The notes under the pieces were generated by a model that was given only the letters and a program-made list of their open reading frames with translations, was not told the origin of the DNA and did not search any database. A program made the translations under genes and the position numbers. From positions 6,358 to 70,357 of IMG/VR virus record IMGVR_UViG_3300046692_000069: a DNA stretch of 64,000 nt; one strand, written 5' to 3'. Each line of letters starts with the position of its first letter. Position 1 is the first letter of the stretch. Shown here piece after piece: positions 5,043-62,149 of this stretch. This stretch comes from a virus.

Positions 5043-5174
5043 ATGGGTTTCATGTGCAGGATTGGCCGTCACGCATGGCGGTACATCAAAGGAAGCGAAA
5101 CGCACGTTGCGTGGAAAGAGGAATGCAAGCACTGCGGCAAGATCGTTAATCGCTCTGCATTTGATGGTTGGTGA
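5043..5174 (+). CDS. small zinc-ribbon protein (DUF1660-like)
   Basis: CRIGRHAW...ECKHCGK; AAGGAGA RBS. Confidence 0.6.
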   Translation: MGFMCRIGRHAWRYIKGSETHVAWKEECKHCGKIVNRSAFDGW

Positions 5175-6274: not shown

Positions 6275-7024
6275 ATGCCAGTTTACTACAGGAACAAGAA
6301 GAGCGGAGTTATCCATGAGCTTGTCGGGAGACTGACATGGGGTGGCGGCACTCTCAAGAATCCATCAGGGTCAACTATTATGGTTGGCCACGCTACGCTG
6401 ATTGATAAATTCGAGCTTATGCAAACTACTGATTCGGCCAGCGACAGGGTGGCGATCGCCATTGCGGCAGAGAACGAGAAGTTAGCCGCTGGTCTAGCCG
6501 CACATACGCCCACGGAGCTACTTGATAGATTGAAGGAGCACTATCATTCGGCGCAGATCTGGAAAGGCGAAGCGGATAAGATGCGGGCGGCATTCCTTGA
6601 TGTCGACCGCTATCGCCGCGAAGTCCGCGCGCATCTTGGTCGCGTTAAGAAGGAATTGTTTGCCGCAAAGGGTCGCGTCAAGGAGCTGGAGAGTGGCAAG
6701 GCTTTTTCAGTGCTGTTATCGCAGGTCGCTGAGCTAAAGCGCTTGTTGCGGCGCGCCAACTCGAAAGCCGAGCGCAACCGCATTAATTCCGCGAATCGAG
6801 AGCGTGCAGCGCGAGACAATGCGCGTTACTGGAAAGCGCAATGTGAATTGGCAAATGAACAAGCGCGTAGCCAACTTGGCGTTGGGTCTTCGCACACCGC
6901 AATGGCCGTTGACTGTGCTGTTGCGCCTCCTGTCGACGCGCCAGATACCGAATCTATCGCCACTCTATCCTTGCGCATTTCCGCTCTTGAACGTGGCCTA
7001 GAAAAATCACGAAGAGGAAGTTGA
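6275..7024 (+). CDS. coiled-coil hypothetical protein
   Basis: Long ORF rich in heptad E/K/R/A helices. Confidence 0.65.
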   Translation: MPVYYRNKKSGVIHELVGRLTWGGGTLKNPSGSTIMVGHATLIDKFELMQTTDSASDRVAIAIAAENEKLAAGLAAHTPTELLDRLKEHYHSAQIWKGEADKMRAAFLDVDRYRREVRAHLGRVKKELFAAKGRVKELESGKAFSVLLSQVAELKRLLRRANSKAERNRINSANRERAARDNARYWKAQCELANEQARSQLGVGSSHTAMAVDCAVAPPVDAPDTESIATLSLRISALERGLEKSRRGS

Positions 7025-7418: not shown

Positions 7419-7484
7419 GCATTTTAGGTGTTGACGTTGTCTCCGGGTTCGTGCACAAAGGGTCATAGAGCAAAGGAGATGAAC

Positions 7485-8299: not shown

Positions 8300-8605
8300 A
8301 TGCCCATATACGTAATGTCTATAAATGATAAAAAGCGCATGTCCGGTTTCTCATGGCGCATCCATAAGCTAACGCCCGCGCAAATCGCCGTCCTGCGCCA
8401 AGCTATTGCGGATGGCGGCGAGATCATCATGTCAGGCATGGACTGCACAGAACCACGTCCACGTCGTGACGTTGTCGAGCGTCTCGCTGCCTTAGGGTTG
8501 GTTAAGTACGCCGCAAGTAGCCAGACTGGCTTTGGTATTGGCATCAATGACTATTTGCGTATTACGGATGCTGGTCGCAAAATTGTTTTTGGTGCTTCAC
8601 CATGA
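8300..8605 (+). CDS. hypothetical protein, possible winged helix
   Basis: KLTPAQIAVL...LAALGLVK...LRITDAGR; GGAGGA RBS. Confidence 0.65.
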   Translation: MPIYVMSINDKKRMSGFSWRIHKLTPAQIAVLRQAIADGGEIIMSGMDCTEPRPRRDVVERLAALGLVKYAASSQTGFGIGINDYLRITDAGRKIVFGASP

Positions 8606-8769
8606 CCTACCTTAACGATAAATATGAGATTCGCTCATGGGACGGCTGGATACTCGCAACCTACGCGCCAGAGAAATGTTTGCGTATCGCCAAGGCGCTC
8701 GTTGGCATTGGCGTACGTCGGCATTACGTTGTGGACACTGCTACGCGGGCTGTTGTGTGGCGGGCTTAA
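8602..8769 (+). CDS. 55-aa hypothetical protein (not in ORF track)
   Basis: MTYLNDKYEIRSWDGW...VVWRA; ATGA overlap. Confidence 0.55.
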   Translation: MTYLNDKYEIRSWDGWILATYAPEKCLRIAKALVGIGVRRHYVVDTATRAVVWRA

Positions 8770-8779
8770 GGAGATGGAT

Positions 8780-9016
8780 ATGAACGACCGAGACAAGAAG
8801 CAACTATCCAAGTTAATCGTACGCGCGACTAACGCCAGCAACGCATATGGCAAAGCAATGAACGATCTTGCCAAGTTTGAACTAAAGCACTGGGGCTTCG
8901 AGCATGCAGACAGGGATATTGACCAGATCATTGACGGTTGCTGTGGCGGATGTGGCTTTAGCCGTGGAATGACGGCGGATGAATTTATTCGTCTGATGGA
9001 CGAAAATAGGGATTGA
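8780..9016 (+). CDS. hypothetical protein
   Basis: AAGGAGA RBS. Confidence 0.65.
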   Translation: MNDRDKKQLSKLIVRATNASNAYGKAMNDLAKFELKHWGFEHADRDIDQIIDGCCGGCGFSRGMTADEFIRLMDENRD

Positions 9017-9068
9017 CCGCGTCTCCAGAGTCCAATATACCTTGTGCATGGAAACGGGGATTACGGAC

Positions 9069-9398
9069 ATGGACGCACGCATTGGCAAGCTGAACAGCGG
9101 CAAGTTCTACGCATTCGTGAGTGGCTACGACAAGCCAGCAACCTACGGCACGCTTGAGCAGGTAGAGATTGCATTGGGCCTGCGCAAGGCATCCCCAAAG
9201 GCCAAGACGCTGCGCAGCTACGAAGTCACCGTTACGCCCGCTATCGTCGTCTACGCTGGCGCATGGAAGGGCGACTCCTACACGGTGGACGTATCGGCCT
9301 ACACGGCAGCGGATGCCATTAAGCAGGCTCGCGCAAAGCGCCGCGAGGAAGATGGTCGCTTTGCGGTTCCTGCCGCATACAAGGCCTCGCGAAAATAA
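9069..9398 (+). CDS. hypothetical early protein
   Basis: Promoter at 9013, GGGGA RBS. Confidence 0.7.
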   Translation: MDARIGKLNSGKFYAFVSGYDKPATYGTLEQVEIALGLRKASPKAKTLRSYEVTVTPAIVVYAGAWKGDSYTVDVSAYTAADAIKQARAKRREEDGRFAVPAAYKASRK

Positions 9399-17710: not shown

Positions 17711-18313
17711 ATGAATACATTATATGCAGTCGTCGCCCATCATTCGCGCGAGAAACAAGCCCTAGAACTGTGTTGCGCTCTAGGCGCTGAGCTGTTTATG
17801 GACGGCGGCAACGGTGGCGCGCTGGCCAATCATCGGCGCGCTATCCAGTGGGCCGCAAAGCAACGTGAGCGCGTTGTGATTCTTGAGGATGATGCGCAGC
17901 CGGTTATTGGTTTTAAGTTCAAGGTTGACGAATGGTTAGAATGCTATCCGCATAACCTTATCAGCTTTTATCTAGGAACTGGCCGCCCGCCCCAATTTCA
18001 ACCGTTGATTAACGAATCGATATCGCTGGCTGACATAAGCGGCTCCAGCGTAATATATTTGCCGCAATTGTTGCACGGTGTTTGCTACTCCATCCCTCAA
18101 AGTTGGATAACTCACATCGCCGCGCAACTTCCAGAGCGTGGCGTTGCCGCTGATTACGCCATCGGCGACGCATGGCGCCGTGTTACTGGTGGCGTGGGCG
18201 TCGTTTATCCGATCAGGTCCCTTGTCGACCACGAAGACGGCCAAAGCGTGGAGCGACACCCTGATGGACAACCAAGAACAGAACGCCGCAAGGCTTGGCG
18301 GCTAGACAACTGA
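17711..18313 (+). CDS. glycosyltransferase (GT-A, GT25-like)
   Basis: NHRRA..VVILEDDA, HGVCYS, ADYAI, SLVDH. Confidence 0.8.
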   Translation: MNTLYAVVAHHSREKQALELCCALGAELFMDGGNGGALANHRRAIQWAAKQRERVVILEDDAQPVIGFKFKVDEWLECYPHNLISFYLGTGRPPQFQPLINESISLADISGSSVIYLPQLLHGVCYSIPQSWITHIAAQLPERGVAADYAIGDAWRRVTGGVGVVYPIRSLVDHEDGQSVERHPDGQPRTERRKAWRLDN

Positions 18314-58636: not shown

Positions 58637-59159
58637 ACGTTCAGATTTCAAGCGCATCAAAAAGGATGCGTATCAGACGATTGACAGGCGGGCAGTTCCG
58701 CCATTAATACCTCACTTGCACGGCATTCGCTCGTATGCGGAACCTTGCGCTGGAGAGGGAAAACTAATAGAAATGATGGATGAGTTTGCGCCACATATCC
58801 AGTGTGGCTTTGCGAACGATATCGACTGGTTTGATGGGGAAGATGCCATTGAAAGCGTCGCTCTAGCGGCGGCGCGGGATCGATATGACGCAATCATCGT
58901 CAATCCGCCATGGACACGCAAACTACTTCATCCGATGATCACTAGCTTTATGAGTTTAGCGCCTACTTATTTGCTTTTTGATGCTGGATGGGCATTCACG
59001 AAGCAGGCGGCTCCGTTCCTCCCGTATTGTACGAAAATCATTACCATTGGCCGCCTGAAGTGGATACCAGACACGACTATGTCAAGCAAAGACGATTGTG
59101 CGTGGTTTGTGTTTAACAAGGATCATGACGGCGGCCCAAGGTTTTATGGAAAGACGTAA
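58620..59159 (+). CDS. small amino-DNA methyltransferase (N6-adenine-type)
   Basis: EPCAGEG (motif I), IIVNPPW (motif IV), GRLKW, CAWFVF. Confidence 0.8.
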   Translation: MGGLGKRSDFKRIKKDAYQTIDRRAVPPLIPHLHGIRSYAEPCAGEGKLIEMMDEFAPHIQCGFANDIDWFDGEDAIESVALAAARDRYDAIIVNPPWTRKLLHPMITSFMSLAPTYLLFDAGWAFTKQAAPFLPYCTKIITIGRLKWIPDTTMSSKDDCAWFVFNKDHDGGPRFYGKT

Positions 59160-59629
59160 TGGGAAATCAGAAGAACAGAGGAAAAGGCAAGGGGATGATG
59201 TTTATTCTTCACGCTCATTCCATGGATACAAATGAGTGCATAAATTGGCCATTCTATCTAATGAAGAATGGATACGGCCAAGTCGGCACAACATTTGGTA
59301 TGATGTTGGCGCACAGATATTCATGCATGCTAGCCCATGGCGATCCGCCACGCGACAAGCCGCAAGCGGCGCATTCTTGCGGCAATAAATCATGCATTAA
59401 TAAAAGACATTTGTCTTGGAGGAACCAAAGCGAAAATGAAGACGATAAGCATGCGCATGGCACTTGGCTTACAAGGATTAGTAGTGCGAAATTAACTAAT
59501 AAGCAAGTGCTGGACATGAGGGCGGATCATGCCAACGGGGCGGAATACAAAGAATTGGTTATTAAGTATGAAACTCCGAAGTCAGCTATTGGCAAGATCA
59601 TAAGGCGCGAAACATGGCGACACATTTAG
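59159..59629 (+). CDS. HNH endonuclease with C-terminal HTH, paralog of 38212-38703
   Basis: ECINWPF..GYG..AHR..AAHSCGN..CIN.RHLSW..EN..DK..HGT. Confidence 0.85.
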   Translation: MGNQKNRGKGKGMMFILHAHSMDTNECINWPFYLMKNGYGQVGTTFGMMLAHRYSCMLAHGDPPRDKPQAAHSCGNKSCINKRHLSWRNQSENEDDKHAHGTWLTRISSAKLTNKQVLDMRADHANGAEYKELVIKYETPKSAIGKIIRRETWRHI

Positions 59630-59640
59630 AAAGGAATAAA

Positions 59641-59892
59641 ATGACCAACGTAATCTCACTAAAAACCAAGAGCTACAGCCGCGACAAGCTGCATACGCGA
59701 CTCGATATCGCAATGGCTAAGCTCGACAAAGAATATGGTTCTGCACGCCTATCTACAGCTGCCGCTCATATCATTGAGGGTTGGGTTTACTCCCTAGACA
59801 GAAGCCTGATGAATCACGAGTCAGAAGCTTCGTTGCCGGCCGAGATAAACATCGCTTGGCGCCGGTATTTCGGGATGGGGGATGCGGCATGA
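59641..59892 (+). CDS. hypothetical protein
   Basis: GAAAGGA RBS. Confidence 0.6.
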   Translation: MTNVISLKTKSYSRDKLHTRLDIAMAKLDKEYGSARLSTAAAHIIEGWVYSLDRSLMNHESEASLPAEINIAWRRYFGMGDAA

Positions 59893-60590
59893 AGTACATG
59901 GGCAGCAAGGCGCGACATGCGAAAGACATTTTGCCGATTATCTTGGCTGGTAGAAAGGCTGGCCAATTTTACGTTGAGCCGTTCGTGGGTGGCGCGAACA
60001 CAATCGACAAGGTGGATGGCAACCGGATTGGTGCGGATATCCACCCGCATCTTATCGCAATGTGGCGCGCGGTTAGTGACGGGTGGATGCCTCCACAGGA
60101 GGTGAGTGAAGACGAGTACAATGAATGCAATAATAGACGTCGCAATGAGCATGGCGACCCAATTCTTGGCTACGTGGGATTTGTCGCGAGCTATGCAGGA
60201 AAATGGTATGGTGGTTTCGCGAGGGATTCTGCCGGCGCCAGAGACTATGCGGCCGAAGGCTTTCGTAGCGCACAAAAGCAGTTTCCAAAGCTTCGCGGAG
60301 TCAGATTTGAGTGCGCCGACTATCGCGAGCTAGACATCCCGCCTAACTCTATCATCTATTGTGATCCACCATACAGAGGAACGACGGGCTATGCATCCGG
60401 CGCGTTCGATCACGATTATTTTTGGCATTGGTGCGGGGATATGCACGCCGCAGGCAATTCTGTATTCGTTAGCGAGTATGAGGCGCCTGAAGGCTGGAAA
60501 TGCGTTTGGTCGAAAGAGGTTAACAACACCTTAGCCAAGGGTACGGGGTCGAAAAAAGGAATCGAGCGCCTATTCACCCTCTACTCCTGA
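59889..60590 (+). CDS. DNA adenine methyltransferase (D12/Dam class)
   Basis: MKYMGSK, YVEPFVGG, IYCDPPY, FDHD.FW, VFVSEY. Confidence 0.9.
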   Translation: MKYMGSKARHAKDILPIILAGRKAGQFYVEPFVGGANTIDKVDGNRIGADIHPHLIAMWRAVSDGWMPPQEVSEDEYNECNNRRRNEHGDPILGYVGFVASYAGKWYGGFARDSAGARDYAAEGFRSAQKQFPKLRGVRFECADYRELDIPPNSIIYCDPPYRGTTGYASGAFDHDYFWHWCGDMHAAGNSVFVSEYEAPEGWKCVWSKEVNNTLAKGTGSKKGIERLFTLYS

Positions 60591-60645
60591 TCCACACTCG
60601 GAAAGATGTGTCAATAGTACGTGTGGTAATTAATGAAAAAAGTTG

Positions 60646-60688: not shown

Positions 60689-61198
60689 ATGAAAACCACG
60701 AAAGGAGTGCTGGTTATGGTGACTGTCAAATATAAAGAGGCCGCGCTGAAGAATCTAGGCATTGATGAAAAAGTTGCGAAGATGATCGAAGATAATCGCC
60801 GCAAGCCCGATGACGACATCAACTCTATCTTGCGCCGTGTTCTTCTCGCGACAAAAAGAAATAAGGCGGCCGCCGCCAAGGCCCGTGCAGAGACGAAGGT
60901 TATTACCTACAAAAGCTGGGAAGGCGACGGCGTTGTCATTCCTCACGGAACTAGGGCGCGGATGGTCTATCAGAACGGCGCGCAGACGCACTATGGCGAG
61001 TTTGTGGACGGACTTCTAGTGGTTGATGGCACTGGCTACGAAACGCTGTCCACGGCCGCCAATGCGGTTGCTGTAACGCGTTCTGGGCGACACACTCGGC
61101 TGAATGGCTGGAGATACTGGGACGTGATGCTGCCGGGGTCTCGGTCGTGGGTCGGTATCGACTCATTGCGAAACGCCGCGCGCAAGATGTTCAAATAA
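60689..61198 (+). CDS. RAMA/DUF4357-like domain protein with N-terminal RHH/SeqA-like segment
   Basis: ID..V...I..R..DD.NSILRRVL; G..YETLSTAANAV...LNGWRYW. Confidence 0.65.
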   Translation: MKTTKGVLVMVTVKYKEAALKNLGIDEKVAKMIEDNRRKPDDDINSILRRVLLATKRNKAAAAKARAETKVITYKSWEGDGVVIPHGTRARMVYQNGAQTHYGEFVDGLLVVDGTGYETLSTAANAVAVTRSGRHTRLNGWRYWDVMLPGSRSWVGIDSLRNAARKMFK

Positions 61199-61204
61199 CC
61201 AAAT

Positions 61205-61229
61205 GGGCGGCGAGTGGCCGCCCTCTTTC
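61205..61229 (+). terminator. Rho-independent terminator
   Basis: GGGCGGC-GAGTG-GCCGCCC-TCTTT. Confidence 0.65.
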
Positions 61230-61243
61230 ATTTGGGGCTTTCA

Positions 61244-61450
61244 ATGATCAGAGTTGAAGAGGTTACGCGACTAGACGACAGGTGGGCTTTGTTACCGCAG
61301 AGCGCGCCGGCCGCTGAGTTTTTGTCGCAGTTTAAGGATAGGCTTGGCATGACGAAGATCCACAATGACTTCGTCTTTACCGCCTCTGGCTGGCAAATGC
61401 CGGGTATCGAGCAGCTTGCCGAAAGGAATGGGATAAAAATTACGTGGTAG
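61244..61450 (+). CDS. hypothetical protein
   Basis: ORF with GGGG RBS-like site. Confidence 0.55.
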   Translation: MIRVEEVTRLDDRWALLPQSAPAAEFLSQFKDRLGMTKIHNDFVFTASGWQMPGIEQLAERNGIKITW

Positions 61451-61495
61451 CGAAAATAGTTCTTGACGCGAGTCGCAACTCCCATTAGGTTTAGA

Positions 61496-61880
61496 TCATC
61501 AGCCGAACGGAGCCAACGCTACCAAGTAGGCGATACATTAACATATAGACCGAACGGCCTATAGCAGAAAGCGAAGGATGGCCATGTAGTATAGCGGTGC
61601 GGTGCGCGCGCCTGCGGGCAACTAAATTAGACAATTTAAAGGGCTGAGCCCATTGTCATCTCGCCCGTAACGGGTAGACTAGGTGAATTTATTATCTAAC
61701 TGTATGCCTTGGAAGCCACAGCAGAGTAGGCCGCAGAGCCGAAAGAGTCTCTGGTTTGCATTGTCACAGCGGAACAATCGCTTGATTGCTCACGATCCAG
61801 CCCCTAAGCATAACTGAACGCATGGAAGGTTAAGCCCACATGCCAGAACAAGCCACGGGCTGCGATCAATGAACAATCGG
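61496..61880 (+). ncRNA. candidate large structured non-coding RNA (about 380 nt)
   Basis: Promoter-like TTGACG at 61463; no ORF of 60 aa or more on +; about 9 short hairpins, including a GAAA-capped stem. Confidence 0.6.
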
Positions 61881-61891
61881 AGGTGCATGAA

Positions 61892-62149
61892 ATGGATAAA
61901 TTTAAGTTTACGAGCCGTGGCCTTGTCCGTGTCGTTGATAGCGACGCGACTCGGGCGGTAGTGCAAGACATTGATCCCAATGACGCGGCCCGTACTGTCG
62001 ACATCACGCCTTCATGGCAAGCCGTCATGCGCATCCTGATTGCCGCCCTTGAAGACGGCACACCAAAGGGCAAGGCGGCGGCGAAAGAAGAGCTTTTCCG
62101 CCTCGCCAAGTTGGTCGATGAATACAACACAAAGGAGTCTTCGCGGTGA
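61892..62149 (+). CDS. hypothetical protein
   Basis: GGAGG RBS; DITPSW..A.EEL.R.AK..D. Confidence 0.7.
   Translation: MDKFKFTSRGLVRVVDSDATRAVVQDIDPNDAARTVDITPSWQAVMRILIAALEDGTPKGKAAAKEELFRLAKLVDEYNTKESSR

Follow-up and report, generated by a model that had tools for sequence, protein, structure and literature searches.

A predicted new family of structured RNAs in phages of Rhizobium and Agrobacterium

Judged by the comparison of homologous sequences, the gap at 61451-61882 of the stretch studied here (the window, 64,000 nt, positions 6,358 to 70,357 of the IMG/VR virus record IMGVR_UViG_3300046692_000069) encodes a member of a new, previously uncatalogued family of phage structured RNAs, and the comparison establishes the fold, the + strand and the non-coding nature of this RNA. 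The original prediction of a phage-encoded structured RNA, possibly of a new class, is supported by covariation in 23 homologues together with the absence of any Rfam match. The family is new, but the wider group it falls into, large structured RNAs carried by phages, is a known one.

The gap is real and non-coding. It measures 432 nt and separates an ORF of 78 aa (61214..61450) from one of 88 aa (61883..62149), and the long gene-free interval noticed in the sequence stands, as the ORF list has no + strand ORF of at least 60 aa inside it, the largest there being 33 and 44 aa. No reading frame on either strand is open across the core of the RNA in more than 3 of the 23 members. The ORF after the gap (61883..62149; probable ATG at 61892) matches PHROG 22670, an entry without functional annotation, and in a clustering of flanking ORFs is homologous only to the gene following the element in L009, the closest relative. 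On the other side, a perfect 7-bp GC hairpin with T-runs on both strands is found at 61205-61223 of the window, 7 nt past the stop of ORF 60689..61198; it is likely a bidirectional intrinsic terminator, in which case the 78-aa ORF would begin within or just past a terminator. An HNH endonuclease (PHROG 59, E 6.5e-22) lies directly upstream of a D12-class N6-adenine DNA methyltransferase (Pfam PF02086, PHROG 56) at 59159-60590. The remaining neighbourhood consists of small ORFs without known families. The features of the gap are the following.

61452..61491, + strand: promoter-like site, recognised from sequence only (A-rich 14-mer, -35 TTGACG, 17-nt spacer, weak -10 TAGGTT)
61463-61468, + strand: -35 TTGACG, inside the promoter-like site
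61486-61491, + strand: weak -10 TAGGTT, 17 nt past TTGACG
61495-61500, + strand: ATCATC, 4-9 nt past the -10, the likely transcription start and RNA 5' end
61497..61639, + strand: 5' domain, ~145 nt, lineage-specific, with patchy similarity to the closest relative L009 only
61640-61880, + strand: family-wide core, the 3' ~230 nt, in all 23 homologues
61641..61651, + strand: P0 hairpin GGGC-UGA-GCCC, upstream of the GUC anchor
61656-61660 / 61682-61686, + strand: P1' (UCAUC / GGUGA), enclosing P1 (region 61656..61686)
61663-61666 / 61672-61675, + strand: P1 hairpin (GCCC / GGGU), compensatory changes in 4/4 pairs
61700-61703 / 61766-61769, + strand: P3a (CUGU / ACAG), 4/4 pairs with compensatory changes, 88% of cells pair
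61704-61707 / 61758-61761, + strand: P3b (AUGC / GCAU), weaker, 76% of cells pair, last pair unsupported
61708-61757, + strand: P4, variable insert in P3
61762-61765, + strand: UGUC bulge in P3
61779..61798, + strand: block 1, 5' strand of P5 (UGAUUG 61783-61788, UCA 61790-61792, GAUC 61794-61797)
61798-61803 / 61857-61862, + strand: P6 (CAGCCC / GGGCUG), with a variable distal arm at 61804-61856
61864..61879, + strand: block 2, 3' strand of P5 (GAUC 61864-61867, UGA 61870-61872, CAAUCG 61874-61879)
61879-61883, + strand: Shine-Dalgarno GGAGG, preceding the in-frame ATG (61892) of the next ORF, which ends at 62149

Homologues were collected from several sources. With blastn against phage records only a block of ~40 nt (window 61758-61799) was matched, in Agrobacterium phage JP1 and in Rhizobium phages RHEph10, RHph_N1_10, N1_15 and N2_6, and a shorter query added Y2_11, Y2_17_1, B1VFA and V1VFA-S. 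An exact scan of IMG/VR with a 20-mer of block 1 gave 11 loci. The corresponding scan with a 15-mer of block 2 gave 68 loci, 13 of them in the family and two of these new (L018, L023); the other ~55 were without block 1 and were set aside as chance. The genome collection yielded one new member on a 379-kb Rhizobium lusitanum contig, one duplicate and one chance match, the metagenome scan a single duplicate, and relaxed patterns four added members (L108, L110, L111, L115) and six chance matches. Set aside by name as chance matches were L075, Rivra, L109, L112, L113, L114, L116 and L117. The final set comprises 23 distinct sequences, drawn from phages of Rhizobium and Agrobacterium, from IMG/VR contigs and from a single Rhizobium genome, with a pairwise identity between subgroups of ~40-60% overall. 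No match was found in the plasmid collection at E up to 0.001, a search which a lone 20-nt block would escape.

The collection scans used exact patterns, and the pattern of each productive scan included a part of block 1 or block 2. Therefore the near-invariance of P5 is partly a matter of construction. This ascertainment bias is limited, as two cross-checks indicate: the exact block 2 15-mer is in each of the 11 loci retrieved with block 1 alone, and the two new loci retrieved with block 2 alone depart from block 1 by only 1-2 changes.

The evidence for the fold comes from these homologues, not from the folding energy of the single sequence. Folded whole, the gap has an MFE z-score of -0.91 for the + strand, an energy that 21 of 100 shuffles attain, and of -0.73 for the - strand; the conserved core by itself reaches -1.33, with 20 of 200 shuffles as good. 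Single-sequence folding is thus no better than that of shuffles, and the argument from folding energy was not borne out. The nine hairpins listed in the original prediction can all be read in the sequence exactly as given, and the MFE fold contains several of them, but several are not conserved helices: only GGGC-UGA-GCCC and the core of the UCUCGCCCG hairpin are, and those in 61518-61640 are not kept in L009. The motif CCGAACGG, pointed out as repeated, has 3 copies in the window, a number reached by 37 of 100 shuffles, and so is unremarkable.

When RNAalifold was applied to a plain MAFFT alignment of 17 sequences, it returned unprompted P1' and a helix of block 1 with block 2 which runs into P6. 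P1, P3a and P3b were added by inspection, and the pairs were then counted on the same alignment, which had not been fitted to the structure. In this alignment 90.5% of 608 cells pair, as against 30-43% with the partners slid by 1-3 columns. Compensatory changes on both sides occur in 15 of 36 pairs (7.6 +/- 1.6 in shuffles), and 41 cells hold double changes (12.1 +/- 3.0 in shuffles), neither value being reached in any of 500 shuffles. The control covered five measures; for four of them 0/500 shuffles reach the observed value, and for further pair types 10/500 do. The covariation among homologues that had been suggested as a check is thus present, and compensatory changes above controls are what defines a structured RNA family. 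A covariance model (R1) aligned all 23 members, including six that had not been used in building it; here 91.8% of cells are paired and 64 show double changes, compared with 20.6 +/- 3.7.

The individual helices differ in the kind of support they receive. P1' is paired in 100% of cells and has compensatory changes in two of its five pairs, and the three middle pairs of P6 show 13, 3 and 7 double changes in the 23 sequences. Towards their distal ends P4 and P6 differ between members in both length and sequence, the distal arm of P6 measuring 43 to 115 nt. A hairpin of at least 3 bp ending 0-5 nt before the GUC anchor, as P0 does, occurs with differing sequences in 19 of 19 members examined, which is a weak test without a shuffle control. 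P5 is an irregular helix of 6 bp, a C/A mismatch, 3 bp, a 1x2 loop and 4 bp, formed by two nearly invariant blocks. One pair of P5a changes from U-A to G-C in 4 of the 23 members, namely in all four found with relaxed patterns, which indicates that P5 is a real helix beyond two conserved blocks. Of the 43 invariant core positions 12 are unpaired; helical segments, not junctions, hold most of the 43. The long-range pairing proposed between 61641 and 61798 proved wrong: CAGCCC (61798-61803) pairs, with covariation, with GGGCUG (61857-61862), and this helix also overrides the suggested AGCC-ACG-GGCT hairpin.

Two further pairings were tried and rejected. For a P2 pseudoknot of CUAGG with the segment after GGUGAA the best stems sum to 63, a total that 60 of 300 shuffles attain (shuffle mean 60.0 +/- 2.9). 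A switching hairpin formed by the second copy of GAACAAUCG as a competitor of block 1 is absent in the four variant members and in several others.

The strand follows from the wobble pairs. Of the 23 members, 20 keep a G.U pair in P1' and 20 a U.G at the base of P5, and G.U cells number 51 overall versus 22 A.C cells. As the kept G.U pairs of P1' and P5 would be A.C on the opposite strand, they point to an RNA of the + strand. The element is co-oriented with the flanking genes in all five annotated records inspected.

Concerning the extent, the original estimate of a structured RNA of ~380 nt agrees with the total length, but the part conserved throughout the family is only the 3' ~230 nt. The members from large phages carry another 5' domain, ~190 nt long and conserved in its own right, behind a conserved promoter-like motif; homology between this domain and that of the window could not be demonstrated. 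From the likely start we infer an RNA of ~384 nt, at about 61497-61880, and because the 5' domains are of similar length in both lineages, the total would be ~380-400 nt throughout.

The promoter-like sequence reported ahead of the gap is present as TTGACG-17-TAGGTT, but the site does not appear in the output of the promoter scan because its -10 fits only 3/6. The 14-mer GAAAATAGTTCTTG is repeated as claimed, with exact copies at 5173 and 61452, and when up to two mismatches are allowed it is also found at 60635 (+) and 56152 (-). These 4 matches compare with 0.44 expected, and 0 of 100 shuffles contain at least 4. The copy at 60635 (+) precedes TTGACA-16-TATAGT, an 11-of-12 match to sigma-70. 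The + strand sites at 5173, 60635 and 61452 have GAAAA(T/A)AGTT(C/G)TTG in common and differ in the quality of their -10; the shared string looks like an A-rich upstream element plus the -35 of the sigma-70-type promoters of this phage. A TCATC start-like motif, said to occur at other early promoters too, is found here within ATCATC at 61495-61500 but is missing after the other two + strand 14-mer sites. ATCATC occupies the equivalent place in 10 of 15 large-phage homologues, and ACATC or GCATC in 3 more. The RNA presumably has a sigma-70-like promoter of its own and heads a block of small accessory genes.

The large phages show a promoter-like motif of another kind, a CCGCA-rich box followed by GCGATAAC or GCTAAAAC and then by ATCATCAA. 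It is found upstream of the element in L002, L012, L105, L013, L110, L005 and others, and downstream of it in L023 and L115. It is unlike the usual -35/-10 and recurs ahead of other genes, for which reason it is possibly the early promoter type of the large-phage group.

What follows the element differs between members. A start codon is found within ~45 nt past P5 in 16 of the 23, and in the other seven the next gene lies beyond a terminator, a spacer with promoter-like sequence or more than 75 nt of gap. L014 (G153) is the sole member with an intrinsic terminator at this point, ~20 nt past P5 (about 7460-7480); in its close relative L005 the place is taken by a ribosome-binding site and a start codon. 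A promoter-like spacer of ~80-100 nt follows in L023, L115, L104 and L010, and longer gaps in L105 and L006. The terminator scan found none inside the window element, and most members are also without one after it. The seven separated members suggest that the element can stand as its own transcription unit.

The carriers of the element are diverse. The window record is a 70,357-bp virus with 127-bp direct terminal repeats, and the element lies ~2.1 kb from its right end. Its genes (large terminase, major head, portal and tape measure, then helicase and primase/polymerase) identify a siphovirus. It has 2-4 weak protein matches each with JP1, RHEph10 and the 118-kb relative G153, none common to the three. 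The only clear protein match between the window phage and JP1 is JP1_106 (record 74505-74819; 43% over 89 aa), which lies directly upstream of the RNA in JP1, the window homologue (2148-2888; G000 8505-9245) being ~59 kb from the element. Flanking ORFs are common only within close subgroups, the largest cluster covering 4 of 17 loci, and the gene immediately downstream clusters in at most 3 of 17, all close relatives.

All five phage genomes searched have a single strong match, as does the 7.8-Mb Rhizobium genome. Among 151 sampled genomes of the host family the element occurs in one, the already known contig, and was not found in the other 150. JP1 also contains a second, weak match of 19.1 bits (L082 1501-1628; JP1 record 17746-17873; GC 64%), which covers only the 5' part of the model (GUCGCC, hairpin, GGUGA) without P5 and may be chance or a diverged fragment.

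In five inspected records the block lies in a gene-free gap of ~400-670 nt, the one exception being the annotated gp130 of RHEph10 (L002 2473-2643; record 87491-87661), a hypothetical protein of 56 aa that overlaps the conserved RNA core. Because no frame is conserved in the RNA family, this CDS was probably annotated in error. The B1VFA element, ~28.6 kb into a record of 122 kb, is not close to a terminus and has accessory genes around it, among them ones for NAD-salvage and ppGpp enzymes. According to the depositors' annotation, the region upstream of it (L106, B1VFA record 13.5-23.7 kb) encodes a NadM-type adenylyltransferase, a nicotinamide phosphoribosyltransferase, a prohibitin-family protein and a (p)ppGpp synthetase/hydrolase. 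B1VFA and V1VFA-S have been described as phage-plasmid-like, with parA, parB and repC, in an account that makes no mention of an RNA (PMC12509600). Among the genes examined in the window phage there are no plasmid-like ones.

Membership in known RNA classes was examined by several routes. Rfam 15 gave no match at gathering threshold in the whole window, GOLLD, ROOL, RNase P, group I/II introns, tmRNA, 6S, ribozymes and riboswitches included, and none in 61150-62000 at E up to 10. A search of ten homologous loci at E up to 1 gave a single match, which falls outside the element and is below threshold. ARAGORN found no tRNA or tmRNA genes in the window. In local alignments to the host rnpB, located with RF00010 at 312 bits, five members score 18-28 and shuffles reach maxima of 24-35, so that a kinship with RNase P RNA was rejected. 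Nor does the host 16S gene, taken with the spacer and 144 nt of leader, show similarity or complementarity to the element above that of shuffles. A self-splicing intron was rejected, as the flanks are unrelated between lineages and a promoter-like site lies upstream and a Shine-Dalgarno downstream. A dispersed intergenic repeat or MITE was rejected as well, each of five phage genomes having a single strong copy. Literature searches, some of them poorly aimed, found no description of the element.

GOLLD and ROOL are large structured RNAs common in prophages and phages, and in size both exceed the element. Like them, the element is phage-borne, has several helices and is large for a bacterial non-coding RNA, but with ~380 nt (core ~230 nt), no Rfam match and no resemblance seen in its helices, the kinship that the original prediction had mentioned as an impression is not supported, no model being matched even at E up to 10. 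The put RNAs of phage HK022 comprise ~70 nt with two stem-loops, occur in two copies per phage, act in cis and bind the host RNA polymerase. The likeness concerns placement only, the element being a folded RNA just past an early promoter-like site, whatever genes follow; a partner in the host would then account for its conservation. It differs in being single-copy and in having a core of ~230 nt, and put lies outside the models searched. The RNase III hairpins of T7 early mRNA and of the lambda N leader are likewise long irregular hairpins with internal loops, placed between early genes and right before a ribosome-binding site. This likeness covers only P5-P6 of the element, not P0-P4, and RNase III sites would not be expected to stay nearly unchanged over 36 nt.

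With phi29 pRNA the element shares that it is a phage RNA with an early promoter whose structure is kept over its sequence, and that in the window it lies ~2 kb from the genome end; the carriers and the window phage have, however, no packaging proteins in common, and the B1VFA element is not terminal. The immunity RNAs of the phage-plasmids P1 (c4) and P4 (CI) are ~70 nt long and act on complementary sites downstream. They are cut from operon leaders of plasmid-like prophages, and large carriers of the element also have parA, parB and repC (PMC12509600), but the element has no Rfam C4 match and the window phage has no plasmid-like genes among those examined.

For the function of the RNA we tentatively put first that it works on a conserved host factor, with P5 as a putative recognition element, a reading that we rate as the likeliest, though at somewhat less than an even chance. 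The RNA would be made early in infection and act on this factor as RNA, whether in the manner of a decoy, a scaffold or a modifier. Recognition would fall to P5, irregular and nearly invariant, and the covarying helices would merely hold P5 in shape. This reading is favoured because the element is the one clear module found in common between phages with hardly any shared proteins, because its neighbours change and because it was not found in the sampled host-family genomes, the known contig apart.

The main rival, somewhat unlikely in our estimate, is a cis-acting leader of an early or accessory operon, in which P5-P6 might be a processing or stabilising site of RNase III type or a translation operator beside the ribosome-binding site, or the folded RNA a put-like device for processive antitermination through RNA polymerase. 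The position directly past a promoter-like site, in the orientation of the genes, would suit a leader, as would the overlap of the last P5 pair with the Shine-Dalgarno of the next gene in the window and the form of P5-P6, a helix of more than 20 bp with internal loops. There is no terminator inside the element, and with most members lacking one and the start codon lying within ~45 nt in 16/23, a role in cis is equally natural; the terminator directly past the element in L014 would even suit an antiterminator. However, the downstream genes are unrelated between lineages, and in 7 of 23 members a terminator, promoter-like sequence or a long gap stands between the element and the gene after it. 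Each genome has a single copy, a conserved multi-helix core of ~200 nt far exceeds what a processing hairpin needs, and the alternative hairpin able to switch P5 is not conserved in the four variant members.

Less likely than a leader, indeed improbable, is a new self-cleaving or otherwise catalytic RNA that frees itself from a polycistronic early transcript. The size, the several helices and the strictly conserved unpaired nucleotides (12 of 43 invariant core positions) would fit such an RNA, as would the lack of an own terminator in most members and a phage-borne occurrence independent of neighbouring genes. But it matches no Rfam ribozyme family, no candidate cleavage site could be found, and most of the invariant positions are within a helix instead of in junctions. 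A riboswitch-like sensor controlling the downstream gene is also less likely than a leader, and very improbable. A complex conserved fold directly upstream of a ribosome-binding site is what one would expect of it, yet the genes after the element have no known family and no common or coherent function, some members have a terminator or a promoter next, and no conserved alternative pairing was found that could serve as an expression platform, the GAACAAUCG copy not being kept. An element acting as DNA, either an imperfect inverted repeat bound by protein or a single-stranded hairpin in replication or priming, less likely than a leader too, has the slightest chance of all, for although blocks 1 and 2 form an almost invariant imperfect inverted repeat of 16-20 bp, a pattern typical of protein-binding DNA, and plasmid-like genes are known from the large carrier phages (PMC12509600), five separate helices show compensatory changes, three of them outside the inverted repeat, the opposite strand would have A.C in place of the conserved G.U pairs, the spacer is anywhere from 43 to 115 nt long and the plasmid collection gave no match.

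The finding bears on annotation and on experiment. It corrects the entry of RHEph10, in which gp130 overlaps the RNA core. Cultured carriers are available, RHEph10 and the RHph phages on Rhizobium etli and R. phaseoli, and B1VFA on R. leguminosarum, and as these are phage-host pairs in culture, expression, partners and phenotype are open to direct testing. The element is the one clear module common to a 70-kb siphovirus and to phages of 97-122 kb, several of them plasmid-like, and that phages sharing almost no proteins should have just this in common points to a host-directed function.

Bacterial and phage RNAs of more than 200 nt with a complex fold are rare, and those that are understood are ribozymes, ribonucleoprotein scaffolds or self-assembling RNAs. 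There is a small chance that the element represents a hitherto unseen class of large phage RNA, one that has its own activity and, as a stand-alone RNA gene, has passed horizontally between unrelated phages of Rhizobiaceae. Such an RNA could be a ribozyme, or could reprogram or block some conserved machine of the host, for instance RNA polymerase, a nuclease or a defence protein. If the version directed at a host machine is true, the element would be the RNA counterpart of the protein genes for host takeover or anti-defence.
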